Both the position numbers and the translations under genes were made by a program. Below, one piece after another: positions 925 to 45,613 of a DNA stretch of 56,970 nucleotides. The notes under the pieces are model-generated. The model was given only the letters and a program-made list of their open reading frames with translations, had not been told where the DNA came from and searched no databases. The DNA comes from Candidatus Enterousia sp. (lineage in GTDB: Bacteria; Pseudomonadota; Alphaproteobacteria; Rs-D84), in assembly GCA_045614665.1 (NCBI GenBank), contig JAZLDI010000026.1, forward strand, positions 1 to 56,970. Reading direction: 5' to 3'. Numbering within the stretch: the first letter of the stretch is position 1; every line of letters begins with the position of its first letter.

Positions 925-931
925 TCGAAAC

Positions 932-959
932 AAAAAACGCCCACAACGGGGCGTTTTTT
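932..959. terminator. Bidirectional intrinsic terminator T2 (copy 1)
   Basis: AAAAAACGCCC-ACAACG-GGGCGTTTTTT; second copy at 2459-2479. Confidence 0.8.
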
Positions 960-964
960 ATTCC

Positions 965-1005
965 TGGCGGAGTATGAATATAACACGATATACACATACA
1001 AATTC
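965..1005 (-). repeat. att junction of mini-island: last 8 nt of tRNA-Ser (TGGCGGAG on +) plus element arm
   Basis: TGGCGGAG-TATGAATATAACACGATATACACATACAAATTC closely matches 2490-2531 TGGCGGAG-TATGAATACAATACGAATAACTACATACAAATTC. Confidence 0.75.
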
Positions 1006-1080
1006 TATTGCTTATAGATAATTATGTAGAAAAAGCCTCTTTTTATGGTATTATGAGTACGGCAAAGGAACTAATACATT

Positions 1081-2241
1081 ATGGCAAAAATAAAATCACA
1101 AGAAGAGATATTGGATTTAATTTATGATACGTACTATCGGATGAACATGCGCCGTAATGTTTTTGATAAAAATGTCAACAATGATCCAGAATATATAAAA
1201 AAAACAACCGGAATGGATATCGATACTTTCGAAAAAGTATTGAATGTTTACGAAACATATGTGCCAGCCAACATATCATTGGGCCTCTTTTTGACAATGC
1301 TTAAAGACGACCCGAAACTGTTGGACGATATCAAAGGGAATTTTTCTAGCTTTAATCCCGAGCTATCAAAAAAACACAGACTCTATAAAACCTATAAAAT
1401 TACGAGCGACCAATTCCGAAATGATGTACGTGGGGCAATCGACATAGGGGCTCGTATTGGTGTTGCAAAAAAATACGCAGACATATACACCAGTATCATT
1501 ACTGGTGACGATGAAATTTTGTGTGACGCATGGATTTTTGACACACTGGACAGAAAGCAACGCCAAGAACTGGCCATAAAAATAATTGATGGCATCAACC
1601 AACATTTGGGCATTGAACAGAAATTAAAAATCCGTTATACAGATGGCAAAAAGCGTTTTATGACCACACAGACCCTATTACAGGAATTGTTTGGAGAATT
1701 TATTGAAAAAGTGATTCTTCGAACAGAAGCAACCAAACCGACAGGACTATATAATAGGCAAGAAAACTCTATTCATATAATAAAATCTGAAAGCTTTTCA
1801 GAATTTATCAAAACACTAAGTCATGAATACGGACACTTTATTGACAACAATTATCCAAATTTAGGCATGCTTGGGGTGCAAATTGCTGAATACGGCGAAC
1901 AGGTTTATAATAGAACAGGCGCCCAGCATGATAAAAATGCCACAGAAAGCGCCTCTATAGATATTGCAGAAGCCGTAAGACAACAAGTTTTGTTGTTTTT
2001 ACATAAACAACTGGAAAGCAAACCAGATTTGTACAAAAAAGCCCTGACCAAGGCAGTTACTAACCTTGAACTAAAATTGGCTGCTATGCGTCTAAAATCG
2101 ACCAAGAAGACATCCGCACACGCAGAAACATCGGACGAATACATAGAAACAAAAAACGCACTTGCATTTTATAAAGTAATACTAAATCAATTTGACCAAA
2201 GTAAGAGTTTAGAAAAATTTACCCAACAAACAGAAAGATAA
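1081..2241 (+). CDS. Hypothetical protein with a zincin-like HEXXH metallopeptidase motif
   Basis: GLYNRQENSIHI...TLSHEYGHFID...E; AAAGGA RBS and TATTAT -10 upstream. Confidence 0.55.
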   Translation: MAKIKSQEEILDLIYDTYYRMNMRRNVFDKNVNNDPEYIKKTTGMDIDTFEKVLNVYETYVPANISLGLFLTMLKDDPKLLDDIKGNFSSFNPELSKKHRLYKTYKITSDQFRNDVRGAIDIGARIGVAKKYADIYTSIITGDDEILCDAWIFDTLDRKQRQELAIKIIDGINQHLGIEQKLKIRYTDGKKRFMTTQTLLQELFGEFIEKVILRTEATKPTGLYNRQENSIHIIKSESFSEFIKTLSHEYGHFIDNNYPNLGMLGVQIAEYGEQVYNRTGAQHDKNATESASIDIAEAVRQQVLLFLHKQLESKPDLYKKALTKAVTNLELKLAAMRLKSTKKTSAHAETSDEYIETKNALAFYKVILNQFDQSKSLEKFTQQTER

Positions 2242-2248
2242 AAAAACA

Positions 2249-2301
2249 CCCCGACAGATATTGTCGGGGTGTTGATTATTTCTGGCGGAGACGAAGGGAT
2301 T
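2249..2301 (-). repeat. 53-bp direct repeat: terminator T1 plus last 19 nt of tRNA-Ser
   Basis: Matches 17039-17091 with one mismatch (CCCCGACAGATATTGTCGGGGT.TTGATTATTTCTGGCGGAGACGAAGGGATT). Confidence 0.95.
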
Positions 2302-2458
2302 GTCTGATTCCCATTTGCGCCACGTTGGCGCAATGGGCCCCTTTCGCTGCGTAAGATTCAAACTTCGCCAAATGGCTTGTTTTCATCAACTGACGCCCCG
2401 AACCCAGCAATCACAGATTGCGAACGCTTTGTCCACACTGCAACACCAACACAAAAAT
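2302..2458 (-). repeat. tRNA-linked structured repeat module R (Ser copy)
   Basis: 2302-2405 aligns with 28621-28721; GC-rich hairpin CCCAT-T-TGCGCCA-CGT-TGGCGCA-ATGGG; core ends in CGAACCC. Confidence 0.85.
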
Positions 2459-2479
2459 AAAACGCCCACAACGGGGCGT
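2459..2479. terminator. Terminator T2 (copy 2)
   Basis: AAAACGCCCACAACGGGGCGT, as at 932-959. Confidence 0.65.
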
Positions 2480-2846
2480 GTGATTTTTGTGGCGGAGTAT
2501 GAATACAATACGAATAACTACATACAAATTCCGCTTTTACAGGGAATTTACAGGGATATTTGATATTTTCTTTATATTATCTGGGAGAAACATTAACTTT
2601 CTGGGAACTATCTGGGAAATCTCCTGATTAAGTGGCTCGTTGCAACCGTGGCGGGGTTGTTTTATATACCCTAATCAACCCATTTGAAAAAAATTTTGAA
2701 ATTTGCTATTAATAGTATGGGCGGCGAAATAATGGCGAAGTGTCCGGCCGAGGAATGGACAAATCAAGGGGATACACATATCCCGTTCGCCGTTAGGAGT
2801 AAGTAAAAAATGAAAAAAGTAATTAATCTAAATAAAAGGACCATTC

Positions 2847-3608
2847 ATGTCAAAAATGAATATTGCTTACTCCGCACTGGAGGACATACATGGATATGAA
2901 CGCAATGCGCGAAATCATCCTGAATCACAAATTAAACAAATTATAAAATCTATTACCGAGTTTGGCTTTAACAACCCAATACTGATTGATGAACGAGGCG
3001 AAATTATCGCTGGTCATGGTCGATATATTGCTGCAAAAGAAATGGGACTTAACACCGTTCCCACCATCACACTTTCGCACCTGAACGAAAGGCAAAAGCG
3101 CGCATATCGGCTGGCTGATAATAAAATTGCAGAAAATGGTGGTTGGAATCTGGAACTGTTGCAGATGGAAATCAAAGATCTGGAACAAATCTGTACAGGC
3201 GAATTAGACATACGAATAACCGGCTTTAACGATGCGGAATTGGATCAACTAATAAATCTGGACGGAATGCCATCCGCTGACCCAAAAGCCAACCATATAC
3301 CGTTTATACCCGAAGATGAAATAGTGTCTGTACTTGGCGACATTTGGCAAATTGGCCCGCACAGAATTATTTGTGGCAACAGTCTAGAAGAATCTACTTT
3401 TAATCAACTAATGGACGAAGTGGTGGCAAATACTGTTTTGCAAGATCCGCCATACAATGTAAAAATCAATGGGCATGTCTGCGGTTCGGGCGCAATACAC
3501 CACAAAGAGTTCGTAATGGCATCGGGCGAGATGTCAGCGGAAGAATTTATCAATTTCCTGAAACAAAACTTTTTTCTGGGGCAGAAGGGTGATAGCTCAA
3601 AAGTATAG
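2847..3608 (+). pseudogene. ParB N-terminal domain plus N6/N4 DNA methyltransferase, C-terminally truncated
   Basis: ParB-like SITEFGFNNPILID...AGHGR and catalytic DPPYN are present; the ORF ends about 50 aa later with no FxGxG SAM-binding motif. Confidence 0.8.
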
Positions 3609-3677
3609 TCGCACTTTTGTTACGCTATTGAAAAAAGAGGATGAAATTACTATAATATTTTAAAGCGAGGATATAAA

Positions 3678-5126
3678 ATGGTGCAGTCTATTGAAATTAA
3701 CCCGAATTTGTCTGGTTTTTTGTCTTCTTTTAGAGAAATTGGCTATAAATTGGAAACGGCTGTTGCTGATATTGTTGATAACAGTATTTCTGCAGGAGCT
3801 AAAAACGTTAGAATAAGTCTATTGCCGTCTCAGAATGCTTTAATGGTCTTTGATGATGGGTGTGGCATGTCTCCAGATGAGCTTGTAGAGGCCATGAGAC
3901 TTGGAACTGAAAAGGATTTTCGTGAAGCAGGCGATCTAGGAAAATTTGGTCTGGGGTTAAAAACAGCATCTTTTTCCCAAACAAAAAAGTTTTCGGTAAT
4001 TTCTAAAAAGAATGGCGTTGTTTCTGCTCTTCAATGGGATATTGATTTTGTTGAGCAAGAGAACAAGTGGCTGGCTAAGAAAATGTTGCTAGAAGATTTG
4101 ATTAGCACAATATCTGGCTTGGATCAAAATGTTGTTAAGTTTTTAGATTATGAAAAATCTTGGACGATAGTATTGTGGGAGAATTTAGATAAGTATGCAG
4201 AGTATCATCTAGAAGAGCTGGTTGATACTCTACGAAAACATTTGTCCTTGGTTTTTCACCGGTATATGGCCCCAGAAGGCTATAACAAGAAGCGAGTGGC
4301 TTTGTTTTACAATGGAACGCAAATTATTCCAGTCGATCCTTTTGCGGAAGGTATTCGAGCAACACAAAAAAACAAAGAAGAAGAAATAATAATAAGGGGA
4401 CATAAAATATATGTAAAAGCCTTTGATGTGCCTAATCATAATAAATTAACCCAGCAACAATATGAAGTTTTGGCGATGGGAGAAGGTTTTTCTAGAAACC
4501 AGGGATTTTATTTGTATCGAGAGGGGCGCTTGCTAAGCTGGGGCACATGGTTTGGATTGGCAAAAGCCTGCGATGCAACATCGTTAGCCAGAGTAAGAAT
4601 AGATGTTGATAACAAGCAAGATGATTTGTGGAGAATTGACGTTAAAAAATCTATGGCGGATCCTGTGCCAGAAGTAAAGGAAGCATTAAAACATTACGCA
4701 GGTAAGACGATGGTACGTTCTAAAGTAACTAAAAGCGCGCCGCATGTTCGTCGTGGCGACAAAGAAGATTGGTGGATGGAAGAACGTTTAGAAAACGGTA
4801 AGATTGTATTTCGTATTAACAGACAGCATTCTTTGTATAGGTCTATTCTGGAGTCTTTTGATAACATTAAACCATTGCTAGATGCAATGTTTAGTAAAAT
4901 AGAGGCGGATATTCCAATTAAGTCGATTGATGCTATTATGAACACAAATCCACATGACATACAAGTGGAAGATGGATTCAATGCAACTGAGATGAAAGAG
5001 TTTGCATTAATGTTGAAGGGGACAGGCAAAACAAAAGAACAAATTGCTGAACTTTTGACAGTTGATGACCCAAGTGGAGTTCATGCGAAAGATATTGAAA
5101 AAATATTACAGGAGGTGTTTGAATGA
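3678..5126 (+). CDS. mzaB: MORC/MutL-like GHKL ATPase (MzaB-like)
   Basis: DIVDNSISAGA, DDGCGM, LGKFGLGLKTAS; NQGFYLYREGRLL; RIDVKKS. Confidence 0.85.
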   Translation: MVQSIEINPNLSGFLSSFREIGYKLETAVADIVDNSISAGAKNVRISLLPSQNALMVFDDGCGMSPDELVEAMRLGTEKDFREAGDLGKFGLGLKTASFSQTKKFSVISKKNGVVSALQWDIDFVEQENKWLAKKMLLEDLISTISGLDQNVVKFLDYEKSWTIVLWENLDKYAEYHLEELVDTLRKHLSLVFHRYMAPEGYNKKRVALFYNGTQIIPVDPFAEGIRATQKNKEEEIIIRGHKIYVKAFDVPNHNKLTQQQYEVLAMGEGFSRNQGFYLYREGRLLSWGTWFGLAKACDATSLARVRIDVDNKQDDLWRIDVKKSMADPVPEVKEALKHYAGKTMVRSKVTKSAPHVRRGDKEDWWMEERLENGKIVFRINRQHSLYRSILESFDNIKPLLDAMFSKIEADIPIKSIDAIMNTNPHDIQVEDGFNATEMKEFALMLKGTGKTKEQIAELLTVDDPSGVHAKDIEKILQEVFE

Positions 5127-7888
5127 GTAAATTCATAGAACGTGGCACAGAAGAGTTTGATAAAATATCTGAGTTTGTTCAGACGGACTTATCTTATATA
5201 AAATCTCCAATTCCGTATAATCAAATGATTAAATCTATAAGCTTTTTTGAAAAACTTGTAGGTGCTAAAATGACACCGCCAGCTAAATTATCGGATGTTG
5301 CGAAATTGCAGCTTGTTCGCAGAATGGAAAGTTATTTTGCAATTCAGCCCTTAGTTGGAGAAGATGTAATTGTTGAATCTGAGGTGTCAAAAAACCGACC
5401 TAAGTGGTGGACTAACAAAGCCAATAGAGAAGATGGATATTATTTGAAAAGTTATTTGACGTATTTAAAAAAAGATCCTGCTACGGTCAATATGCGAAAT
5501 AAAGATGCTATAAATAGAGATATGGAGCGAACAGATCTTGTTTTAGACAAATTGTTTGACCCCCAGGATGCCTCAACACAAAGGGAAGATAGACGCGGTC
5601 TAGTTATGGGTAATGTTCAGTCTGGTAAAACATCAAATTATTCTTTGTTGATAAGCAAAGCTGCAGATGCAGGATTTAGATTCATAATAGTTTTAACAGG
5701 TACAATAGAGTTGTTACGTCAGCAAACACAGGGACGATTAGATGAAAGTTTTGTTGGCGAAAAATCGGAAGCAATAGATGGTGCAGATAATATTATAGGT
5801 GTTGGAAAATATCGTTCTCCAAATGATCTGAAAGAAAAACTCCCTATATCAATGACTTCTACTGATACAGATTTTAGAAGCAATCAAAGAAAAGCACTAA
5901 AACCTCTTAATTTAGCCAATACAAAAAGTCCGATTATTTTAGTGGTAAAGAAAAATTCTACTGCCCTAAAAGAAATACAAAAATGGCTGGATGGTAATGC
6001 AGAACAAACAAAACAATACCCTATATTGATGATTGATGACGAAGCAGATGCAGCTTCTGTTTCATCGAAGGGTTCTGAAGATCCGACGGTTATAAATAAA
6101 CTAATTAGGGAGATTTTAAATCGTTTTGATAAGAGTGCATATGTGGGGTACACGGCAACCCCTTTTGCAAATATATTTATTGATCCATTGTATAACACGC
6201 AGGGTATGAATGATTTATATCCAAGTGATTTTATGATTTCTTTGGCTGCGCCAGAAAACTACATTGGGGCAAAAAAGATTTTTGGTGGTTCTGAAGACGA
6301 ATATTCAGATTTCTTGGTCCCGATTGTGGATTGGAGTGATGAATTTCCGTGGAAGCAGAAAAATCCAGAGGTTCATATGTATGCCAATAGATTGCCAGAA
6401 TCATTACAGAATGCAATCCGGTTATTTATGCTAAACATATGTATCAGGGATTTGCGTGGTTATGATGACAAGCACAACAGTATGTTGGTTCATGTTAGTC
6501 GTTTAACAATGGTGCATAAAAAAGTACAAAATCTTATTAAGAAGTTTGTAGAAAAGATCGAAAATGATGTTTTGAATTATGCTGGTGCTCCACAAAACTC
6601 TCAGGAGTATAAAAACGCAATTTTACCATTCAAAACCCTTTTTGAAGATATGTCGGAATCAGGCTATGAGTGCGAGGGGGAATATTTTGGGCGTAATTGG
6701 GCTTCAAATAAGACGTATGGGGTATTTTCATGGGATAAAGTCCTTGAGCGGCTTAAGGATATAGTATCTTCAATATTTGTGGGGGGAGCTTTTTCTACAA
6801 AGAAAAAGGAAATTGTTTATCCAAAAGATAGTAGAGTAAATGTTATTGCTGTTGGCGGTAATACATTGGCTCGTGGATTTACGTTGGAAAACTTAAGTGT
6901 TAGCTATTTTACAAGAAATACAATTGCTTGTGACACATTGTTGCAAATGGGACGCTGGTTTGGCTATAGAACAGCGTACGACGACTTATGCAGAATATTC
7001 ATGCCAGAGGAATGTATTAGGAACTTTAAGTATGCAACAATCTCGTCAGAGGATTTGGTTGAAAATATTAATCAAATGAATAAGAAGGGCGCAGACCCGA
7101 AGGACTTCCTGATAACGATTGCGACCCATCCTGCATCACAGTTGGTGCTGACCGCAGTTAATAAGTCTCGCAATGCCGTTTACAGTAGTGGGGTTCGGTT
7201 AGATGGTAAGCTAGTAGAAAATCCAAATGTAAACGTATCGCATGGTATGAATTTAAATAACAAACAGGAATTATTAGACTGTGTGACCAACATGTCATCT
7301 GAACTAATATCAACATATGGTACTCCAACATTAGATAAAGATGGTTTTTTATGGAAAGATGTGGATGCAAAATTTATTATAGATTTCATCACAGGGTATC
7401 CGATTGATGTTCAGGTAGAATATAGTTCTGACTTCTTTAGAAGATATTTAAAGGAAAATTCCCATTTAAAGTGGGATGTCGCCATAATCAGCAGAGATTA
7501 TGTAAATAAAAATAATACTAAGCCAACAGTTACAATAAATAGTCTGGAGGTATACAAATCTCGTCGTTCATATCGTCAGGGGTCTGATGATAAAAAGATA
7601 AGCATGTCAATTAAAGACGATGAATGTATAGGCTTGGGGTATACGGCAGATAAAAAGCGTGCAGATGCACGAAGTGAAAGGGGTAAGCCTTTATTGCTGA
7701 TTAATATAGTTGATATCTATCTGAATAAAGAAAGTGATGAAAAAGCAATGGAGGATGTGCCGATTGTTACAGTGTCTTTCCCTGGGACATTCAATACACC
7801 CATTACAAAACCTGTATATGGTGCGGTATGGAACAAGAGGGTAGAAGATCACCTGAGGGAAGATTTTGAAGAAAGTGAAGACGAATAA
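5123..7888 (+). CDS. mzaC: Z1-domain SF2 helicase-like protein (MzaC-like)
   Basis: GNVQSGKT, IDDEADAAS, YTATPFAN, RGFTLENL, LLQMGRWFGYR; ATGA overlap with the upstream gene. Confidence 0.88.
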   Translation: MSKFIERGTEEFDKISEFVQTDLSYIKSPIPYNQMIKSISFFEKLVGAKMTPPAKLSDVAKLQLVRRMESYFAIQPLVGEDVIVESEVSKNRPKWWTNKANREDGYYLKSYLTYLKKDPATVNMRNKDAINRDMERTDLVLDKLFDPQDASTQREDRRGLVMGNVQSGKTSNYSLLISKAADAGFRFIIVLTGTIELLRQQTQGRLDESFVGEKSEAIDGADNIIGVGKYRSPNDLKEKLPISMTSTDTDFRSNQRKALKPLNLANTKSPIILVVKKNSTALKEIQKWLDGNAEQTKQYPILMIDDEADAASVSSKGSEDPTVINKLIREILNRFDKSAYVGYTATPFANIFIDPLYNTQGMNDLYPSDFMISLAAPENYIGAKKIFGGSEDEYSDFLVPIVDWSDEFPWKQKNPEVHMYANRLPESLQNAIRLFMLNICIRDLRGYDDKHNSMLVHVSRLTMVHKKVQNLIKKFVEKIENDVLNYAGAPQNSQEYKNAILPFKTLFEDMSESGYECEGEYFGRNWASNKTYGVFSWDKVLERLKDIVSSIFVGGAFSTKKKEIVYPKDSRVNVIAVGGNTLARGFTLENLSVSYFTRNTIACDTLLQMGRWFGYRTAYDDLCRIFMPEECIRNFKYATISSEDLVENINQMNKKGADPKDFLITIATHPASQLVLTAVNKSRNAVYSSGVRLDGKLVENPNVNVSHGMNLNNKQELLDCVTNMSSELISTYGTPTLDKDGFLWKDVDAKFIIDFITGYPIDVQVEYSSDFFRRYLKENSHLKWDVAIISRDYVNKNNTKPTVTINSLEVYKSRRSYRQGSDDKKISMSIKDDECIGLGYTADKKRADARSERGKPLLLINIVDIYLNKESDEKAMEDVPIVTVSFPGTFNTPITKPVYGAVWNKRVEDHLREDFEESEDE

Positions 7889-7898
7889 AGGGGATAAC

Positions 7899-8834
7899 AT
7901 GATAAACTTTTTAGATGTACAACCAGGAACATATAAGCGTTTGGGTGAAGATTCTTGTTTTTTGATAGAAAGGGATGCAGACAATAATTTAGCATTCGTA
8001 ATTGAATTACCAAAAAATGCAAAGTTCCTAGCCAAAACGCTGAAATTAGCAGGTGTTGCAATAACAGAAAGAGCAACAGGTTTGGCTGTGCAGTTTGTGC
8101 TGACACTAAAAAATGAATCAGATACAGAAATTTTTATAAAACTATGTAATGATTTACAAGAAATACCCGTGTCACAAGACGTACAAAAATATGCCGATGA
8201 TATTTCTTGCCGGTTAGAACAATGGGTGAGATTTCTTGCAATGGCACGGGCCAAGAATATCCCCCTAAGAACTCAGTTGGGGCTGATTGGCGAATTGACT
8301 TTTTTAAAAATGTTACTACAGACTGCCAAAGATCCAAAAGTAATTTTAGAGAAATGGCGTGGTCCAGAGGGAGAGGTGCATGATTTTATTTTGTCTAAGT
8401 CTGCATATGAAATAAAGAGTAAGCTGGCCGATGACAAAACTGTAACGATATCTAATGAAAATCAGTTGGAAGCTAATGAACAAGAAGAATTAGGCTTGAT
8501 TGTGTTTGAGCTAGCAGAAGCAGACGAAGGAAAAACGATTGTTGATTTGTCTGCAGAAATTATTTCTACATACTTCAAAGACGATATTGTGGCCCAGTCC
8601 ATTTTTGAGAAAAAATTGTTGGAATTGAATTTTAATATCATGGAAACATACGATAATCTTGGTACCTATGATGTTATTGGCATGAAAAAATATAGTGTCA
8701 CAGAAGAATTCCCTAAGCTTGTACCGTCTAGTTTGCCTTCTGGAATTCACACTGTACGCTACAAATTGGACTTAGAGAATATTTCTAATTTTATAGTTCC
8801 TTTTGATGGTTCGTTATTAACCCAGGAGATTTAA
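7899..8834 (+). CDS. mzaD: PD-(D/E)XK motif protein, DUF4420-like (MzaD-like)
   Basis: QLGLIGEL, WRGPEGEVHDF, YEIKS, ISNENQL, FPKL; GGGG RBS before ATG 7899. Confidence 0.85.
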   Translation: MINFLDVQPGTYKRLGEDSCFLIERDADNNLAFVIELPKNAKFLAKTLKLAGVAITERATGLAVQFVLTLKNESDTEIFIKLCNDLQEIPVSQDVQKYADDISCRLEQWVRFLAMARAKNIPLRTQLGLIGELTFLKMLLQTAKDPKVILEKWRGPEGEVHDFILSKSAYEIKSKLADDKTVTISNENQLEANEQEELGLIVFELAEADEGKTIVDLSAEIISTYFKDDIVAQSIFEKKLLELNFNIMETYDNLGTYDVIGMKKYSVTEEFPKLVPSSLPSGIHTVRYKLDLENISNFIVPFDGSLLTQEI

Positions 8835-8836
8835 AT

Positions 8837-10936
8837 ATGGCTACGTTGGCATTGCAAGATGTTTATAAAGACATTTTAGAAACTGTTCGAAGCACGGTGA
8901 CAGATACGACATTGTCTGACGAGTTTCTAAGAATGGTGTCCGAATATTTGGCGCAGGATGCAGAAATTACAGATCCTACATTTGGTTTTTGGGATGATAA
9001 GATTTCTGGTAAAAATTATGAGATTGCTGGGTGTGCATGGGATGATGAAAGAAAATTACTGACTTTTATAGGCTGTGAATTTTTTAATGATGATGAAATT
9101 CAAACAGTAACCAAAGATCTTTATACTCGCAAGTTTAAGGCCTTGATAAACTTTATGAAATTGGCTACAGATACAAAAAATCCTCTGTGGGCCCAGATGA
9201 CGGTTACCGATCCTGCATCAGAGGTTGCTAGAATAGTTTTTGATAACTATGCAAGCGCTCGTAATATTGAGTTTATATTGATTACTAATGGCCAAAGACC
9301 CAAAACTTTATCTAAGGCAGACGCTAAAATTACTATGCCAGGCATGGATGAGTCAAAGTTTTCGTTTAAAATGTTTGATATTACTAGAATATATCAATTA
9401 AGAACTTCTGAAACCTCCTTTGAAGACCTAGAAATAGATTTTTGCGATAAAACACCTGACCGTAAGGGGGTGAAGTGTTTGCCCGCTATTTGTGAAAATT
9501 GTGCAGATTATAGATCATATCTGGCTATTATGCCCGCAGAAACATTAGCCATGATATACGATGAATTTGGACAGAAATTGTTGGAACAAAATGTGCGAAC
9601 GTTTTTACAATTAAAGTCTAAACCAAACAAAGGAATGTCTATTACCATAGATCAGGCTCCAGAACGTTTCTTTGCCTACAATAATGGGTTGACGTGTACT
9701 GCTGCAGAACCAGAGTTCGAAGTGGATGGTGATGTTTTGTATTTGAAATCAGCCAAGGGCTTTCAAATCGTGAATGGCGGCCAAACTACCAATGTAATAT
9801 ATGGTGCATATAAAGCCAAAAAGGATTTATCCAACGTGTCCGTTCAAATGAAGCTATCTGTTGTTGAAGATAGGGAGATGTACTCAGACTTTGTTGAAAA
9901 AGTCGCTAGATATGCGAATACACAAAACCCTGTTAAGGAATCAGACTTCTTCTCGAATAGTGAATTTCATAAGCGATTCAAGGAAATTTCCCAGACGTTA
10001 TGGGCGCCAGCACTAAATGGAAAACAAAATAAAACAAAATGGTATTACGAGCGTACTCGTGGTCAGTATTTAGCAGAATATGCAGGAAAAGGAGATCGTG
10101 TTAAAAATGATTTTTTAGCCATATATCCAAAAGAGCAAATGATAGACAAGATTATTCTTGCCAAAACAGAAGCCATTTTCTGTGATGGACCACATATTGC
10201 TAATAAGCAACAAAAAGCATTTACACATTTTGTTGATACAATAGAAAAAAAGCTGGATAAGGATAATAACTCTATTAATGAAAATTATTTTAAAGAAGCA
10301 ATTGCAAAGGTTTTATTGGCAAAAAAGACGGATTCTATCATAGCAAAAAGTGATTGGTATCAGGCAAACAAATCAGTCAAATCAGAATTTAAGGCGTATG
10401 CCTTGGGCTTGTTGAATTCTTATGTTACTAACAAAAATAAGTTTATTGACTTCGGCCAGATTTGGAATTTGCAGGATGTACCAGAAACTTTTGTAAAAAT
10501 AGTAGAAAAAACCATATTAAAAGTTCGTGAGTATATGTTGCGAGAATATCCTGATTTAGCAGACTGGCGTGAAAAATTTAAGCTGAAATATGTGTGGACA
10601 GAAGTTTCTAAGATAGATTTGGAGCTGTCAGATGATGAGCTAGAGGATATTACTGTTTCAGAAGAGGTACAGAAAACAGTCGCCAGAGCAGCTAAGAAAG
10701 AAGCGAAACAAAATACGGCTATGAATGCCGTGGTGTTTTGTGTGGAAAAACCAAAACAACATTGGGGGATTTTGTTAGATTTCTTTGCAAATCATCCAGG
10801 AATGTTGCAGCACACAGAGTCCGGGGTTTTACAGTCGATGGCATATGGGAAAATTTCTGTCCCTTCGGATAAGCAAGCTCAGATACTACAAAAAATCTAT
10901 TGCTTGGCACAGCAACATGATGTAAAGTTCTCTTAA
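8837..10936 (+). CDS. mzaE: AIPR family protein (MzaE-like)
   Basis: LLEQNVRTFL, FFAYNNGLT, QIVNGGQTT, YANTQNPV, WYYERTRGQY. Confidence 0.9.
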   Translation: MATLALQDVYKDILETVRSTVTDTTLSDEFLRMVSEYLAQDAEITDPTFGFWDDKISGKNYEIAGCAWDDERKLLTFIGCEFFNDDEIQTVTKDLYTRKFKALINFMKLATDTKNPLWAQMTVTDPASEVARIVFDNYASARNIEFILITNGQRPKTLSKADAKITMPGMDESKFSFKMFDITRIYQLRTSETSFEDLEIDFCDKTPDRKGVKCLPAICENCADYRSYLAIMPAETLAMIYDEFGQKLLEQNVRTFLQLKSKPNKGMSITIDQAPERFFAYNNGLTCTAAEPEFEVDGDVLYLKSAKGFQIVNGGQTTNVIYGAYKAKKDLSNVSVQMKLSVVEDREMYSDFVEKVARYANTQNPVKESDFFSNSEFHKRFKEISQTLWAPALNGKQNKTKWYYERTRGQYLAEYAGKGDRVKNDFLAIYPKEQMIDKIILAKTEAIFCDGPHIANKQQKAFTHFVDTIEKKLDKDNNSINENYFKEAIAKVLLAKKTDSIIAKSDWYQANKSVKSEFKAYALGLLNSYVTNKNKFIDFGQIWNLQDVPETFVKIVEKTILKVREYMLREYPDLADWREKFKLKYVWTEVSKIDLELSDDELEDITVSEEVQKTVARAAKKEAKQNTAMNAVVFCVEKPKQHWGILLDFFANHPGMLQHTESGVLQSMAYGKISVPSDKQAQILQKIYCLAQQHDVKFS

Positions 10937-10952
10937 GTACAAGGGGATATTC

Positions 10953-12083
10953 ATGACAGACTTTACAATGATGGATCTATGCGCTGGCATAGGTGGAATT
11001 CGGCGTGGTTTTGAATTAACAGGCCGATTTCGTAACGTTTTATCTGCCGAAATAGAACCCAATGCGTGTGCGGCATATAAGCATTTGTATGGTGATGACC
11101 CCACAAACGATTTAACGTCAGAAGAGTTCAAAAAGAAAACTCGTAATCTGTCTTGTGATGTTTTGGCAGCGGGGTTTCCTTGTCAGACTTTTAGCCGGGC
11201 TGGGAAAAAGGCTGGATTTCAGGATGAAGAAAAAGGAATTATATTCTTTGCTATTCGCGACATTATTTTAGGGATGAAGCGCCGTCCAAAGGTTCTTGTT
11301 TTAGAGAATGTTGACAACCTATTGACGCATGATAAGGGCAGAACATTTAAGAAAATATTAGATGTTTTAATAAATGATCTTGATTACCACGTAGTGGGTG
11401 CAAAGCAGGATGCAAAAACTGGAGAAATTACATTTTGTGCCAAAGATTTTATTCGTAATTCCAGAAATTTTGGTGTCCCTCAAAACAGACCTCGCGTGTA
11501 CATTATTGCGTTTGATAAGAAGCGATATAAAAAGGGGTTAAAAAATATTCCTGTGGCAACCCCAGAGAAAAACGATGCTTGTTTATACGAGTCATTGAAC
11601 GACTTGTTGGACAATGATGTAGATGCAAAGTTTTTCTTGTCCGAGGGATATTTAGAAACTTTGGAAAAACATGCGATTAGAGAAAAAAGTAAGGGCAATG
11701 GTTTTGGGTATAAAATTGTTAATTTACCAGAGATAGTAAAACCAATTGCGAATACAATACTAGCTACTGGTGGCTCTGGACGTGAAAGGAATCTTGTATT
11801 AGACAAGAAGAATGGACGAAAATATGCTGGTAAGATAGTTCCGCTTAAAAAAAGTCCAGTTAACAACAAAAATGTTAGAAGCATGACACCGAATGAGTGG
11901 GGTAAGCTACAGGGCTTTGTAAATTATGGATTTAAAACAGGCGAGGTGGACGAATTTTCTTTGCCAGAAAATATGTCTGACGTGGCAAAATACAAGTTGT
12001 TTGGAAATGCAGTAACAGTTCCTGTTGCGCAAACAATGGCAGAGTTCGTTTTAGATTGTTTAGAGATTCTTGGTGAATTATAA
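10953..12083 (+). CDS. dcm: DNA cytosine-5 methyltransferase
   Basis: DLCAGIGG, GFPCQTFS, ENV, PQNRPRVYI, FGNAV. Confidence 0.95.
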   Translation: MTDFTMMDLCAGIGGIRRGFELTGRFRNVLSAEIEPNACAAYKHLYGDDPTNDLTSEEFKKKTRNLSCDVLAAGFPCQTFSRAGKKAGFQDEEKGIIFFAIRDIILGMKRRPKVLVLENVDNLLTHDKGRTFKKILDVLINDLDYHVVGAKQDAKTGEITFCAKDFIRNSRNFGVPQNRPRVYIIAFDKKRYKKGLKNIPVATPEKNDACLYESLNDLLDNDVDAKFFLSEGYLETLEKHAIREKSKGNGFGYKIVNLPEIVKPIANTILATGGSGRERNLVLDKKNGRKYAGKIVPLKKSPVNNKNVRSMTPNEWGKLQGFVNYGFKTGEVDEFSLPENMSDVAKYKLFGNAVTVPVAQTMAEFVLDCLEILGEL

Positions 12084-12089
12084 CGTTCC

Positions 12090-12245
12090 TTATTCATCAT
12101 AGTAATACGTCCAGCATGGGCGTAACATCATGCGTGCCGTCCCGTAATCATCGCCCCAGATGTATTTGTCCAGGTAATCGCGTGCGTCCATGGCGTGAAT
12201 GTCACATATCGCACTATTTATTCCTGCGAGGCTCAATCCTTTCAT
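12090..12245 (-). CDS. Small 51-aa hypothetical protein (below ORF-track cutoff)
   Basis: GAGGA RBS then MKGLSLAGINSAICDIHAMDARDYLDKYIWGDDYGTARMMLRPCWTYYYDE*. Confidence 0.5.
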   Translation of the reverse strand: MKGLSLAGINSAICDIHAMDARDYLDKYIWGDDYGTARMMLRPCWTYYYDE

Positions 12246-12296
12246 ATTTATCCTCATTTTATGTCAACGCAATTATTGTAATAAGTCTGTAATTTT

Positions 12297-13292
12297 CTAT
12301 TTTTCACCCTCTTTCAAAATTTCCTTGAGCATATCTAGATCACCAGGATCGTCCAAACGGTGTATCATCGCATGACAATTCGGACACAAAATAAGGAAAT
12401 CCGAAGGTTTCATTGATCGCTCTTCGTGCTCTCTCAGATATGAATATGGTATTTTATGATGACATTCTATAAACTCGTCATCAAGACCAGGATACCTTCC
12501 TTTGAAAGTCATATCACACGCCTCACATTTATACCCGCGAGAAGCCTTGATTTTTTTTATATCAGATGTACTCAATCTGCCTTCATAAACAAAGTGTAAT
12601 TTTTTTTGTTTCCTTTCCACACCCTTTAATTGAACCATATCCTGATTTATAACATTGTTTAAATCTGCTCGTTCTTTATTCAAAATAGCCTTGAACACAT
12701 CGGGATTTTCTTGATAAATTTTCACAATTCTTTTGAAATTATTGCCTGCTTTATTCATTCCCTGACTGCCGTCTGTTAATAGATATTCCATACAAGACAT
12801 TTGTAGGGAAACACCCCCAACATTTCGGTACTTTTCATCAATAACGTCACCATTACCAATGGCGATTTGACGTAATTTTCCAGACAGTTCGTGAATTGCA
12901 TCCATTCGGTTGATTTTTCCCGCAAGTACTAGTTGGGTATACTCCAGCAACAACGCACATTCATGTGGTGACCATAATGGTTGTCCCTTGTGTTTATATT
13001 TTATTAAAAGACTTTTCGCCTCTTCGATGACATCGTCTGGTATATTGATTGCTTTTGCGCAAATCTCCAAGGCCTCTATTTCCTTGTTTTCTTTAAAAAT
13101 TTGAATCGCAAAACTGGCGATACGAGGAACTGTACTATCTCCATTGTTCGTTTGTAACATTGGGTTGTACGTTGGCATTATTTTCGCCATTTCGTAGCGA
13201 TTTAATTTGTTATAGTTTTCACGAAAAAATTCGAAACATTTCACAAAAGTTTGTTTTCCAACACTATGTAATAGCCTTTCTGTTGCTGCCAT
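12297..13292 (-). CDS. HNH endonuclease, McrA-like (possible modification-dependent nuclease)
   Basis: CEAC...FIECHHKIP...LCPNCHAMIH; central YRNVGGVSLQM segment. Confidence 0.75.
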   Translation of the reverse strand: MAATERLLHSVGKQTFVKCFEFFRENYNKLNRYEMAKIMPTYNPMLQTNNGDSTVPRIASFAIQIFKENKEIEALEICAKAINIPDDVIEEAKSLLIKYKHKGQPLWSPHECALLLEYTQLVLAGKINRMDAIHELSGKLRQIAIGNGDVIDEKYRNVGGVSLQMSCMEYLLTDGSQGMNKAGNNFKRIVKIYQENPDVFKAILNKERADLNNVINQDMVQLKGVERKQKKLHFVYEGRLSTSDIKKIKASRGYKCEACDMTFKGRYPGLDDEFIECHHKIPYSYLREHEERSMKPSDFLILCPNCHAMIHRLDDPGDLDMLKEILKEGEK

Positions 13293-13562
13293 TTTATATC
13301 TCGTTGTTTTATAATTATTTTATGTACAAATCATAGTAAGAAAACACTATCTTTTCAATACAAATAACACTTAAATCAATTCTTACCTACAGGCGAATAC
13401 TCTTTCCTTTACCAGAAATCTACTCATGATATTTTTTGTTCTCAATGTTATGGCTTCATCCTATGCGAGATCAAACAAAATCCACATACACTTCAATTAT
13501 ATAACTTGACTAATGCCGCTTTGTAAGCAGTAATTGCATGATGTTATACAAAGGAGTAAAAC

Positions 13563-13760
13563 ATGCCAAAACATCCTGAAATTACTATTAAAATCAAAGA
13601 TCCGACTGACAATACCCGCTTGGTTTTACAGTGTCTTGATATGTTCTGGAAATACGAAATTCAGGCCGAAGCCGAAGTGTTTATAAACGACATCGCACAG
13701 ATGGGCTTAGTGCCGGCTGTGCAGGCTTGGTTTAATGTTGAAATAGAGGCACAAAAATGA
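13563..13760 (+). CDS. Small hypothetical island-backbone protein
   Basis: AAGGAG RBS; coupled to the DUF2924 gene by an ATGA overlap; TTGACT upstream. Confidence 0.6.
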   Translation: MPKHPEITIKIKDPTDNTRLVLQCLDMFWKYEIQAEAEVFINDIAQMGLVPAVQAWFNVEIEAQK

Positions 13761-14194
13761 GAAAAAGGGAATTACCCAAAACCATTGATGTATTAAAGGC
13801 ATTACCTTATTCAGAACGGGCAAAGTTATGGGCGAGGTATTCGCCCTACCCGTTCAAACGCCAGAACCGTTCGTTATGGTACTATATTCAATGCGACTGG
13901 TTGGGATTGAGAATAGAGAAAAAGCACTTGGTCAAAATCAAACGATACAAAGACAATCCATCAGAGTGTGTGACACGTGCGGCACGGACTAAATATAACC
14001 TGACACCGGGGGCAATTATACGCAAAGAGTTCCGTGGAATCGTTCATGAAATCATTGTAAATAACGACAATACGTTCACGTATAATGGCGAAAAATATCG
14101 CACTTTATCCGCAATAGCCAAAGATATATCAGGCATCAAGATTTCGGGGCCGGATTTCTTTGGGCTGAGCCAAAGGAAAAGCCATGACAGTTAG
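13757..14194 (+). CDS. DUF2924 domain protein
   Basis: PGAIIRKEFRG...YNGEKYRTLSAIAKDISGIKISGPDFFGL, directly upstream of the recombinase. Confidence 0.85.
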   Translation: MRKRELPKTIDVLKALPYSERAKLWARYSPYPFKRQNRSLWYYIQCDWLGLRIEKKHLVKIKRYKDNPSECVTRAARTKYNLTPGAIIRKEFRGIVHEIIVNNDNTFTYNGEKYRTLSAIAKDISGIKISGPDFFGLSQRKSHDS

Positions 14195-15777
14195 ATGTGC
14201 GATTTATACACGAAAGTCAACCGAGCATGGGTTGGATATGGAGTTTAATTCCCTGCAAAACCAAGAAGAGGCATGTAAGGCGTATATCGCATCCCAATCA
14301 TTCAATGGCTGGCAATATTGCAAAACATACAGCGATGCGGCGATTTCTGGTGGAACTATGGAACGGCCTGCCCTGAAACAAATGTTGGAAGATATGGCAC
14401 ATGGTTTGGTCAATACGGTTGTGGTTTATAAGGTTGACCGACTATCGCGTTCCATTTTAGACTTTCATAAAATGATGCAATATTTCAACAAGTATAATGC
14501 GAACTTTGTGTCCATAACCCAATCGTTTGATACCAGCACATCCATGGGCAAATTGACGCTGAATATGTTGCTGTCGTTTGCCCAGTTTGAACGTGAAGTT
14601 TCATCCGAACGCGTGCGTGATAAAATCCGTGCCAGTAAAGCAAAAGGGATATGGATGGGCGGCGTACCACGCTTAGGTTATGATGTTATAAATAAGAAAC
14701 TAATTGTAAATCCAGCCGAAGCCAAGCAAGTTAGACAACTGTTTGATAAATACTTGGAGCTGCAATCTGTGAACGACCTGACCCTGTGGGCCGAAAGCAA
14801 CGGTATTCGCGCCAAAGCATGGACAACCGCCAAGGGGATGCTGCGTGGTGGCAAACCCATTACCCCAAACAGCATGCACAAGATTTTACGAGACAAAATC
14901 TATATCGGGATGATTGAAAACAAAGTTAGCAATAATGTTGCCCGTGGCGAGCATCAGGCGATCGTGTCGCCAGACATTTTTCAGCGTGTACAAGATGCAC
15001 TGAGGTCGAATTCTAATAATACCAATCATCGCAGGCGGTCACCAAACCTGCTGTCACGAAAACTGTACAATGACAAAGGTGTACGCTTTGCCAATCAACA
15101 CGCATGTCCAAAAGACAAGGCGGGACCATATTACTATGCAACACGGGGATTCTATCTGCCGGCGGCACAGGTGGACGAAATAGCCATGTCTGTTGTGGCC
15201 GAATTTCTGGACAGCGATATGAGTGCCCTGTCCCAAAATGTGGTATTGGCATTGAAACGGATTGTGTGGGATGACCTGTCATACCTGCAAAGACGAGAAT
15301 TGGTTCGCGTTATGATTGAACGAGCAATGTATTCGCAAGAACAACTGATATTCTATATCAACATCAACCCACAGTTGTATAACTCATTTTTATCTACATA
15401 TCACATCAATCATAATAACAGTCCAATGGAATATACGGCAAATGGCGATAATGTGACGATTGTGCGGCCGGTTGTGCTGCGCCGATATGCCAACACCAGA
15501 TTTAGCGGTGGATGCAACGGCACGCTGAGCATTACAGAAAACAACCACCTGCTATTGAAGGCGTTCGCCACCGCGTGGCGATGTAGATTCAATTGGCCGA
15601 GCCGAACATGTCGCCCTGCGCCATGTTTATAAACATCTGTCGCTGGCATATCTGAACCCAGAAGTCGTAAATCATATATTGAGTAATCAATGTCATATAT
15701 CTGTTCGTGATATGTTGGACAAGGCATCACGTAGCAATGAATTTACCGAACAGAAAAAGTTATTTGATTTTCAATAA
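14184..15777 (+). CDS. Large serine recombinase with a frameshifted C-terminus (ORF stops at 15632; native tail runs to 15777 in another frame)
   Basis: RCAIYTRKST, YKVDRLSRS, FAQFEREVSSER. After ~15590 another frame reads AEHVALRHVYKHLSLAYLNPEVVNHIL...EQKKLFDFQ*, a typical tail for this family. Confidence 0.85.
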
Positions 15778-15800
15778 GATTTGTTATAAAATGTACTTAT

Positions 15801-15953
15801 GCCTGTTGGAAGGCTATCTCATCCGTGTAAAGATCTCATCATCCAACAAATAACATAAACCTTTAACCTGGGTTTTATTGTCTAAACTACAGATTACGGA
15901 TGCATATTTTCTAGATAATAATCCCCACAAAGACAATAAAGGAGTATGTTATG
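15801..15953 (+). promoter_or_regulatory. Candidate structured 5' leader RNA
   Basis: Complementary pairs TGTTGGA/TCCAACA, CATCCGT/ACGGATG, TTTATTGTCT/AGACAATAAA, TAACATA/TATGTTA enclose the RBS and start codon. Confidence 0.5.
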
Positions 15954-16631
15954 ACACATATTGAATATTTTAAATTACAAGCTAAAAATCTGTTAAAAGA
16001 CTATCAAACGCGTCACTTGTCAGAAACAGGCGACATCTACGAGTACAATCCAAAGTTTTTTGATATCGTTGGTATATTCTTAGACTACGATATAATGGAT
16101 GATGTTCCAGACTTTGAATTTAAGTTAGGCAATGCCCAGCACCTAATTGCACAGATAACAGGTTTTGATAAATGGGCAGAGCTTATAGGTGCCACAGAAG
16201 AAGAACATGCCGAAGCACATCGTATACTGGAAACTTATAAATATAACGAATATGGTTCCACTGGATTTATATCGCACAATTTTACGCCTGACGGTCGTGA
16301 TGTGACAGAATTTTCTCATGAGCAAAAAGGAAGTGATGTCCCCTATCATGAAGAACTATCTGGAGAGGATTGGCAAGATGGTATTGATGAATGCTTAAAA
16401 CATGGTATGGGATTTGATCCAGACACGCTGGTGGAGTGCATACATTGTGGCAAACAGTTCGCATTCAAAGAAGTCAAGGTTAGATGCCTAAAACCAGAAT
16501 ATAACTATGGTCAAGTGGATGATTTTAAGGAAATTATGTGCAAACACTATCCTAATTGTGATGGCAACTTGATTGATTTGATGCCCGTAGAAATACAGAA
16601 CGACAATGGGGGTGATGAAGATGAAAAATAA
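15951..16631 (+). CDS. Hypothetical protein: N-terminal helical KLQAKNL...AQHLIAQ..GF..WAEL domain and C-terminal Cys zinc-ribbon
   Basis: AAGGAG RBS; CIHCG...CKHYPNCDG. Confidence 0.6.
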   Translation: MTHIEYFKLQAKNLLKDYQTRHLSETGDIYEYNPKFFDIVGIFLDYDIMDDVPDFEFKLGNAQHLIAQITGFDKWAELIGATEEEHAEAHRILETYKYNEYGSTGFISHNFTPDGRDVTEFSHEQKGSDVPYHEELSGEDWQDGIDECLKHGMGFDPDTLVECIHCGKQFAFKEVKVRCLKPEYNYGQVDDFKEIMCKHYPNCDGNLIDLMPVEIQNDNGGDEDEK

Positions 16632-16914
16632 ACATTTCTCATATCCTCGCAATCAAACAAAATCATACACAAATACCAATGGATATAGAGTGTATAAAGA
16701 TACGGGTACATTGGTTCATCGACATATGGCAGAGTTGAAACTTGGGAGACCTTTAAAATCTGGTGAAGTTGTACATCATATAAACAGAAATAAACAAGAT
16801 AACAGACCGTCAAACCTGTTTATATTCCCCAACCAGCAAGCACACTGGAACGCCCACAAACAAGACGCAAGAGACTTTGGCACTGATTATAGTTTTAGAG
16901 GTAAGAAAAACTAA
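16621..16914 (+). CDS. Small HNH endonuclease (HNH_3-like)
   Basis: VHRHMAELKLGRPL..GEVVHHINRNKQDNRPSNL. Confidence 0.85.
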   Translation: MKNKHFSYPRNQTKSYTNTNGYRVYKDTGTLVHRHMAELKLGRPLKSGEVVHHINRNKQDNRPSNLFIFPNQQAHWNAHKQDARDFGTDYSFRGKKN

Positions 16915-17038
16915 AATTGCCACGGTGGTTTTGGGGATTGTATGTAAACAGTGATAAAATTGGGTTATTTTGGGTTTTAATTATACATACTGGTAACTTC
17001 GTGGCGAAAAAGTGGCTGGAATCCGCCTAAAAACAAAG

Positions 17039-17060
17039 CCCCGACAGATATTGTCGGGGT
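17039..17060. terminator. Terminator T1 downstream of tRNA-Ser
   Basis: CCCCGACA-GATAT-TGTCGGGG hairpin. Confidence 0.7.
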
Positions 17061-17072
17061 TTTGATTATTTC

Positions 17073-17163
17073 TGGCGGAGACGAAGGGATTCGAACCCTT
17101 GATACCCTTGCGAGTATACTACATTTCCAATGTAGCGCACTAGACCAACTATGCGACGTCTCC
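17073..17163 (-). tRNA. tRNA-Ser(GGA)
   Basis: GGAGACG...CTACA-TTGGAAA-TGTAG, long variable arm, GGTTCGAATCC, CGTCTCC-G-CCA. Confidence 0.97.
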
Positions 17164-28448: not shown

Positions 28449-28569
28449 ATTTTTCTCCTTTGGCTAAATAAAAAAACGCCCGTATATGCGGGCAATAAAA
28501 AAAGACGACCAAATGTCGTCCGCAGAATGCATTTATTATATCACAAAACACGATTTTTTTCAAGATAAA

Positions 28570-28620
28570 ACAAAACGACCGGCAAGCGGTCGTTGATTTT
28601 CTGGTGGGGACACAGGGACT
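28570..28620 (-). repeat. Duplicate of the tRNA-Lys last 19 nt plus terminator
   Basis: 28602-28620 TGGTGGGGACACAGGGACT = 28786-28804; the terminator AACGACCGGCA.GCGGTCGTT is duplicated too. Confidence 0.95.
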
Positions 28621-28753
28621 GTAAATCCCCATCTGCGCCGCGTCGGCGCGATGGGCCCCATTCACTACGTAAGGTTCAAACTTCGTTTGCACTTGTTTTC
28701 ACCAACTGGCGTTCCGAACCCTTTTTGGGTTCTCGTCCGCGCCCCATACAAAA
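28621..28753 (-). repeat. tRNA-linked structured repeat module R (Lys copy)
   Basis: Homologous to 2302-2405; followed by a GAACCC-TTTTT-GGGTTC hairpin. Confidence 0.85.
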
Positions 28754-28785
28754 ACAAAACGACCGGCATGCGGTCGTTAATTTTC

Positions 28786-28861
28786 TGGTGGGGACACAGG
28801 GACTCGAACCCTGGACCCAATGATTAAAAGTCATTTGCTCTACCAACTGAGCTATGTCCCC
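28786..28861 (-). tRNA. tRNA-Lys(TTT)
   Basis: GGGGACA...AATGA-CTTTTAA-TCATT...GGTTCGAGTCC-TGTCCCC-A-CCA. Confidence 0.97.
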
Positions 28862-44033: not shown

Positions 44034-44111
44034 GGCGGATATAGCTCAGTTGGTTAGAGCGTTGGTTTGTGGTACCAAATGTCGCCGGTTCGAGTCCGGT
44101 TATCCGCCCCA
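44034..44111 (+). tRNA. tRNA-His(GTG) with encoded G-1
   Basis: G-GCGGATA...TTGGT-TTGTGGT-ACCAA...TATCCGC-C-CCA. Confidence 0.97.
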
Positions 44112-45560: not shown

Positions 45561-45613
45561 TTCAAACCCCTTTTTGAGAAGTTTGAAATCTTTAATACAT
45601 TAAATCAATTTAA

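Follow-up and report, generated by a model that had tools for sequence, protein, structure and literature searches.

Positions 965-2290 of a contig from Candidatus Enterousia sp. (JAZLDI010000026.1) probably form a non-autonomous integrative cassette, in which a single gene is held between the attP half-sites of a family of islands encoding a large serine recombinase (LSR). The contig was analyzed over its whole length of 56,970 nucleotides, which we call the window. It is contig C26 of a 0.91-Mb metagenome bin of 26 contigs that is 76.5% complete (genome G000). Candidatus Enterousia (order Rs-D84) are described as having reduced genomes of about 0.75-1.0 Mb and as occurring in animal guts (PMC12306168). 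Genus-wide DNA searches covered 256 Candidatus Enterousia genomes, G000 among them. All layouts are read in the sense of the tRNA, which is the minus strand of the window.

The locus runs tRNA-Ser(GGA), T1, 14.5-kb island, arm, core, T2, R module, 19-nt tRNA 3' copy, T1', one gene, arm, core, T2''. The tRNA-Ser(GGA) gene (17073-17163, minus strand, identified by ARAGORN) is the primary attB, and its last 8 nt are the core CTCCGCCA. It is followed by T1, the element-borne terminator and P' half-site of the large island (17030-17072, minus strand), by the large-island cargo (2536-17029), by the arm or P half-site of that island (2498-2535, minus strand) and by the core copy at its right junction (2490-2497, minus strand). 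Behind this junction lie the terminator-like hairpin T2 (2453-2489, minus strand) and an R(A) module (2302-2452, minus strand), which has a structured core at 2302-2405 and a degenerate inverted copy of the tRNA end at 2406-2452. The 19-nt copy of the tRNA-Ser 3' end that closes the module (2283-2301, minus strand, core at 2283-2290) is the secondary attB half-site. The mini-unit begins there with its own element-borne terminator and P' half-site, T1' (2240-2282, minus strand), which is terminator-like on both strands. Its single cargo gene (1081-2241, plus strand) encodes a zincin-like HExxH protein of 386 aa and has a promoter-like site at 1027-1054. The arm, or P half-site (973-1010, minus strand), contains GAATTTGTATG ... 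TTCATA and ends at a core copy (965-972, minus strand; TGGCGGAG on the plus strand), which forms the attR-type right junction. On the chromosomal (B') side stands T2'' (927-964, minus strand), a terminator-like hairpin with a core identical to that of T2; the two have one and the same hairpin variant, ACGCCCCGTTGTGGGCGTTTT.

The ends of the mini-unit match those of the large island. T1' with the adjoining 19-nt tRNA end (2240-2301) is 94% identical over 62 nt to T1 with the end of the tRNA gene (17030-17091). At the other end, T2'', core and arm (928-988) are 84% identical over 61 nt to T2, core and arm of the large island (2453-2513), and 82% identical over 79 nt when the alignment is extended (E = 4e-16). 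Taken individually, T1' matches its counterpart in the adjacent LSR island at 94% identity and the arm does so at 82%, and this type of arm recurs in relatives. All three of T1', T2, and T2'' were scored as hairpins of the terminator type, and 11 such sites were found in 800-2900 against 2.0 ± 1.8 in shuffled sequences. Between its ends the unit has one open reading frame (ORF) of 386 aa and no recombinase domain or transfer function. An earlier note on this DNA, made from the letters alone, had named the repeats, and all of them are present; the left core, which it placed at 964-971, lies at 965-972.

The mini-unit was detected by DNA search in three of the 256 genomes (G000, G192, and G195), at ~91% identity. 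In G192 it stands behind R(A) and the 19 nt, and the primary site is empty, an arrangement that looks like the state of the locus prior to arrival of the large island. In G195 an intact tRNA-Ser ending in CTCCGCCA is followed by T1', the gene, the arm, the attR core CACCGCCA and another terminator, and R is absent (there is one weak match only to the R1 covariance model). No LSR homologue was found at E <= 1e-10 in either G192 (94% complete) or G195 (97% complete). A contig of an animal-gut sequencing run (X2) has the same arm and core beside yet another flank, a fourth context, and the distal flank of the unit is different in G000, G192, G195, and the X2 contig. The mini-unit proposed in the earlier note is, therefore, a discrete entity that occupies the primary site in one genome (G195) and the secondary site in two (G000 and G192); the family recombinase was found in neither G192 nor G195.

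Horizontal spread was measured as third-codon-position identity within identical residues for three genome pairs. Between G000 and G192 this identity was 0.92 for the cassette gene, 0.64 for rpoZ and 0.51 for a MiaB-like gene; between G000 and G195 the values were 0.97, 0.74, and 0.48, and between G192 and G195 they were 0.89, 0.63, and 0.44. Nei-Gojobori estimates of synonymous divergence (dS) for the cassette gene were 0.17, 0.07, and 0.21 for the same pairs in this order. The cassette shows far less divergence at synonymous sites than the core genes flanking it, indicating recent horizontal spread. That the mini-unit is much younger than the split of the genomes and yet has the same boundaries at two kinds of site argues for site-specific movement. 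The cassette gene was also present in all four sequencing runs examined, from four studies, at 85-97% likeness; these runs were Logan contigs of animal-gut samples and derive from relatives, with at most 17% of sampled words in any run.

The large island encodes an LSR of 482 aa, which is frameshifted (14184-15632, plus strand) and matches PF00239 (Resolvase, 3e-39) and PF07508 (Recombinase, 5e-13). A 540-aa orthologue of 93% identity matches the solved serine integrases of TP901-1 (6e-24), A118 (4e-6), SPbeta, and phiC31. LSR homologues occur in 33 of 100 other genomes of the genus, and broken or partial LSR genes are common. All eight LSR loci that were fetched lie beside tRNA-Ser, six with the anticodon GGA and two with TGA. 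A tRNA gene was found in the 4-kb flank at 28 of 41 LSR-homologue loci; the tRNAs are Ser (GGA, TGA, or CGA), Tyr (a ~60% clade), Pro (a ~56% clade) and one Lys(CTT), which lies on one or the other side of a partial LSR match of 49% identity. Of the 13 loci without a tRNA, many appear to be truncated at a contig end or to belong to distant homologues. Directly behind the tRNA, 27 of the 28 loci have a terminator hairpin and then a second hairpin (the T1/Tz layout). T1 and ~95 nt of island interior follow the tRNA in G014, G054, G088, and G103, and the same T1 and interior are found in G019 behind the 19-nt tRNA-end copy of an R module. The far island end in G014 and G054 consists of the arm, CTCCGCCA and a different terminator. 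T1 is, therefore, element-borne, and the crossover would fall within or beside the 8-bp core. A tyrosine integrase was rejected as the catalyst: none is encoded among the island ORFs, and the genome's own copies lie elsewhere.

Two arm types were distinguished, both with TTGTATG ~25 nt from the core and with TCATA or TCTTA adjoining it. The arm-core 13-mer TCWTACTCCGCCA was found in 33 of the 256 genomes and a reversed control pattern in none. In a regex-based census, 142 distinct core contexts were sorted into approximate classes, a few of the rows called arms clearly not being arms; the counts were 11 tRNA/T1, 9 tRNA/T2, 8 19-nt/T1, 19 arm/T2, 19 arm/other-terminator, and 2 arm/T1 junctions. 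The hybrid junctions around the islands (attL/attR type) share the 8-bp core, and tRNA/T2 is the junction of empty sites. The unoccupied layout that had been predicted for tRNA-Ser exists in five genomes (G072, G066, G165, G206, and G192), in which the full tRNA is directly followed by T2, R(A) and the 19 nt. The proposal that the 19-nt copy behind R serves as a second attachment site also stood, through the eight distinct junctions of the 19 nt with T1. The arm-core-T1 junctions, which are of attP type, lie within chromosomal contigs (G134 C9 and G188 C29) and could represent either islands placed directly in tandem or a site of attP type; the G134 junction has no tRNA-Ser within 20 kb.

Other single genes occupy the same slot between the same ends. 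In G129 the space between R(B) with its 19 nt and T2'' with a homologue of ORF 1-924 contains T1, one ABC-F ATPase gene and an arm. In G107 a single-gene unit with a Fic domain comes first and is closed by an arm; Tg, R(A) and the 19 nt follow, and after them an ABC-F unit, likewise closed by an arm. Over 1659 nt the two ABC-F units, from G129 and G107, share 96% identity, but they diverge in the ~60 nt that immediately follow the core. Judged from these different terminator modules, the P' end is apparently exchangeable. A 3-kb unit in G118 ends in an ABC-F gene fragment and an arm. Relatives, thus, provided both the empty sites and the alternative single-gene cargo between the same arms that the earlier note had suggested looking for. 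An empty secondary site, with R and the 19 nt directly on T2'', was found in none of the six other genomes that share the distal flank of the window (T2'' and ORF 1-924); in one of them, G108, R is truncated and a different small gene lies at this flank. The flanking ORF itself (1-924, the 3' end of an unannotated, 5'-open frame) has no Pfam or PHROG match. Its homologues occur in only 6 of 255 other genomes, beside arm-core or R remnants, and it may be island cargo rather than part of the core genome.

The R module had been taken for a duplication made at this locus. It is instead a genus-wide module, with R(A)-like copies behind at least seven tRNA species (Ser, Lys, His, Leu, Gly, Glu, and one further). 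The window has a second example at 28567-28861 (minus strand), where tRNA-Lys is followed by a terminator, R, a 19-nt copy of the tRNA-Lys 3' end and another terminator, with no island. The R modules of the two loci are 85-87% identical (2307-2405 versus 28625-28721), and the unit at the Lys locus is flanked by 54-nt repeats of 96% identity. R units have a constant order, namely a terminator, a degenerate inverted copy of the tRNA 3' end, a small hairpin, a conserved core of ~105 nt, the last 19 nt of that tRNA and a terminator. The R core starts with GGGTTCG and stops before AATCCC or AGTCC and, therefore, occupies the position of the T-loop in a truncated tRNA copy. Across many species the R(A) sequences share 90-97% identity. 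R matters for the present locus as a source of additional copies of the 19-nt B half-site.

The R core appears to be structured. RNAalifold analysis of 28 R units predicted 29 pairs, 9 of them with compensatory changes, and slid controls gave 0-3 such pairs. Pairing was preserved in 98.6% of cells against 92.6% in shuffles, and none of 500 shuffles reached the observed score. A covariance model of R matched 55 of 63 sampled genomes of the genus, with up to 11 matches per genome, some of which, at ~75 nt, may be tRNAs; outside the genus it had matches in two further genera of the same family, and 19 genomes of a neighboring family gave none. In the window the R1 model match covers 2283-2405, and the R of the Lys locus extends over 28621-28750. 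Neither 2283-2453 nor 28600-28770 had an Rfam 15 match at E <= 1. A protein-coding function was rejected since the reading frame of the conserved nucleotides changes from locus to locus, and a hammerhead-like motif was rejected since the UGAUGA-like positions vary. A second type of module, S, was seen in G006, G020, G007, and G072. There tRNA-Ser is followed by a terminator in the form of a long palindrome, which continues into a perfect inverted copy of the last 18 nt of the tRNA; an AT-rich stretch and another copy of the tRNA end come next.

A scheme for the origin of the locus can be proposed. Recombination by the family would take place inside the 8-bp core at the end of tRNA-Ser. An incoming island would give the tRNA a new terminator, T1, and would shift the old one, T2, behind the arm. 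The cassette of the window sits at a pseudo-attB, the 19-nt tRNA 3' copy that closes the R module, and not at the tRNA itself. Because it encodes no recombinase, an LSR from elsewhere would be needed, and a family LSR encoded elsewhere may have integrated it in trans or, with the cassette joined to an autonomous island, in cis. We infer that an LSR catalyzed the integration, that the crossover falls within the family core and that the mini-unit is still mobile. The predicted order of events is that tRNA, T2, R, 19 nt, and T2'' were in place first, that the cassette then entered the second site and that the large island afterward entered the first; the large island would have taken the primary site later, or independently. 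This order is favored because T2 and T2'' share one hairpin variant, as is usual for the terminators that flank an R unit (for example at the Lys locus), and this shared variant is the one feature that would place R before the unit.

Several observations weigh against a mobile cassette. The LSR of the window is disrupted, with a 29-bp gap after ~15580 relative to the 540-aa orthologue and the loss of the last ~70 residues, and no Pfam family, zinc-ribbon and coiled-coil domains included, was assigned to the last ~260 residues of that orthologue. The arm in G192 is followed by CGCTGTTA instead of the core and by decayed T2-like sequence, so that this copy looks decayed or rearranged. The ratios of nonsynonymous to synonymous divergence (dN/dS) of the cassette gene are 0.38, 1.13, and 0.52 (pairs ordered as for dS), suggesting a weakly constrained cargo. 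The high identity shared by G000 and G192 continues through R and T2 up to the tRNA, and a larger composite of R and mini-unit may have moved as one. Behind T1 the ABC-F units still have the 95-nt island extension, which deletion derivatives of a full island would be expected to keep, and the mini-unit of the window may have arisen likewise. Lastly, no circular junction or empty-site read of the mini-unit was seen in the runs, which comprise only contigs of relatives from animal guts.

The search for excision products in these four runs gave no clean evidence of a circle. One contig in run X3 joins T1, core and arm, with a short side of 29 nt only, and is weak. The joints in run X1 scored as skipping 1531/1525 arise from two similar T2-core-arm repeats. 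A metagenome scan with a 17-mer across T1 and the core matched 119 stretches. The 80 that were fetched comprised one genuine T1-core-19 nt-R junction, 78 chance matches and one tRNA-like sequence without T1, and no attP-type junction was among them.

Part of this evidence would suit a fixed deletion relic, in which a full LSR island at the 19-nt copy lost all but its ends and one gene and the remnant, now immobile, spread by homologous recombination. We consider this unlikely. Broken and partial LSR genes are indeed common in the genus, the interiors of the G019 and G118 units are clearly truncated, the T1 extension is kept in the ABC-F units and the attR of the G192 copy is degenerate; the truncated interiors and retained extensions indicate that many small units derive from full islands by deletion. 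However, the two boundaries of the mini-unit are identical behind a full tRNA (G195) and behind R and the 19 nt (G000 and G192), and with at least three unrelated distal flanks the homology required for recombination is lacking on that side. A deletion origin is, moreover, compatible with later site-specific movement. A different order of events, or a different unit of transfer, also seems improbable. The cassette could have entered at the tRNA before R was inserted between them, or a composite of T2, R, 19 nt, T1', gene and arm could have moved whole into a primary site. The 90-91% identity block shared by G000 and G192 spans T2, R and cassette together, as such a transfer would leave it, and the terminator of an R unit can differ from the one behind it, as in G016. 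Against this, the identical hairpin variant of T2 and T2'' is typical of the pair around an R unit before any insertion, R(A) is so similar across many species anyway that the likeness to G192 says little, and in G195 the cassette occurs without R.

An assembly artefact generated by repeats of 60-80 nt is extremely improbable. The source is a metagenome bin that is fragmented into 26 contigs and incomplete (76.5%), and the window is an entire contig of it, but the repeats are shorter than ordinary reads, and the two critical junctions recur in G192, G195, and G118. Specifically, the junction of R and the 19 nt with T1' and the gene is present in G192, and that of the large-island arm, core and T2 with R is present in G118, where the arm is 94% identical. 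The arrangement first noted is not a misassembly because these junctions recur in independent assemblies. The integrative cassette is our preferred interpretation of 965-2290.

The protein encoded by the cassette belongs to a small family, with 34 members at E <= 0.001 in a collection of 5.8 billion proteins, none of which has an informative name. Residues His-248, Glu-249, His-252, and Glu-289 are invariant in an alignment of 30 sequences. Sub-threshold matches to MPTase-PolyVal, DUF3920, and phrog_87 (Pfam and PHROGs) point to a zincin-like metallopeptidase of the polyvalent-protein type. An AlphaFold model of the protein has a pLDDT of 84.9. Foldseek returned no PDB neighbor of the model at E <= 0.001, and in a wider structure search only the C-terminal helical hairpin was matched, which is generic. 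Relatives of 38% identity are encoded downstream of tRNA-His in G081, G075, and G092, and in G081 and G075 they lie behind R-like modules. The reading frame is open in all three carriers of the mini-unit despite dN/dS values of 0.38-1.13, and the HExxH...E motif is invariant. In sequence terms these features would fit either a conflict gene or weak constraint.

The ORFs of the large island contain a ParB_N fragment, HATPase_c_3, Z1, DUF4420, AIPR, C5 methylase, HNH, DUF2924, LSR, and HNH_3 domains. The Z1, AIPR, DUF4420, HATPase_c_3, and C5-methylase genes form a cluster, and the DUF2924 gene precedes the recombinase. The ParB_N-domain ORF beside the island arm (2847-3608) has 253 aa compared with 434 aa for an ORF with a similar start in G188, and it may be truncated. 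Elsewhere in the window two more LSR genes lie directly downstream of tRNA-His (region 44035-47014, with Resolvase-domain matches at 45108-45554 and 46577-47014 on the minus strand), and these genes may be the recombinase pair of a second LSR island. At 51545-52066 lies a tyrosine integrase gene.

Recombinase-less single-gene units appear to move between species and between primary and spare sites in reduced genomes of ~0.9 Mb. Such movement would be a simple route for these genomes to swap defense or conflict genes. The short, well defined attB/attP pairs of a new LSR family would also be of practical interest for engineering, and the R modules, as an undescribed structured element, merit a study of their own.

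Islands in tRNA genes are classically tyrosine-integrase elements. Those treated in PMC4383910 resemble the Enterousia locus in the order of tRNA and island, in the displaced copy of the tRNA 3' end and in their tandem arrays. The Enterousia island differs in having no tyrosine integrase and a shared core of only 8 bp. According to the Islander paper, no serine integrase is known that targets a tRNA gene (PMC4383910). In the titles and abstracts of the open-access literature searched, no description was found of an LSR family with specificity for the 3' ends of tRNAs, and the one exception we found in print is an LSR at the tmRNA (transfer-messenger RNA) gene of Dehalococcoides. The Enterousia LSR family, with its Ser, Tyr, and Pro clades, appears to use the very ends of tRNA genes and to replace the terminator.

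The cassettes of integrons depend on the tyrosine integrase IntI and on folded attC sites. The ends of the mini-unit are instead an arm and T1, and the island has no tyrosine integrase. It is conceivable, if rather doubtful, that Enterousia runs an LSR counterpart of the integron, in which R modules act as structured, portable landing pads and recombinase-less single-gene cassettes with arm and T1 ends are shuffled among pads and species by the LSRs of resident islands. As a similarly tentative extension of this idea, each R would add a fresh tRNA 3' end, and hence a new attB, and R might be functional as RNA or as folded DNA and not a scar.

Staphylococcal cassette chromosome (SCC) elements accumulate in tandem, and recombinase-less cassettes with the same repeats (psiSCC) exist. 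The SCC and enterococcal cassette chromosome (ECC) elements follow a similar logic, with serine recombinases acting at the 3' end of rlmH (PMC6222049). Their target is rlmH, by means of Ccr, whereas the Enterousia sites are the 3' ends of tRNA-Ser, -Tyr, and -Pro, with extra sites provided by R modules. Cis-mobilizable elements (CIMEs) were defined for integrative and conjugative elements with tyrosine recombinases, and accretion occurs with elements of the ICESt1 type. The concept has been cited for islands of Dehalococcoides (PMC3146451). Like a CIME, the mini-unit lies between att sites of an autonomous element, has no recombination or transfer genes and stands in tandem with that element. 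It differs in that the enzyme is a serine recombinase and in that the G192 and G195 assemblies have no autonomous partner.

The ssrA islands of Dehalococcoides are, as presented in PMC3146451, the nearest described system. They have a CcrB-like serine recombinase of ~540 aa beside the tmRNA gene, tandem islands and variable cargo, and are bounded by 20-bp copies of the 3' end of the gene with a crossover in the T-loop; 15 islands without an integration module were proposed to be cis-mobilizable (PMC3146451). These islands also carry a ParB-domain gene, as does the large island of the window. The parts of PMC3146451 available to us describe neither an R-like module nor a single-gene unit at two kinds of site for Dehalococcoides. 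The two systems are alike in the recombinase gene beside a tRNA-like gene, the tandem islands, the short copies of the 3' end and the islands lacking an integration module. The Dehalococcoides islands use a tmRNA target, the T-loop and a 20-bp repeat, whereas those of Enterousia use true tRNAs and a terminal 8-bp core and bring a replacement terminator.

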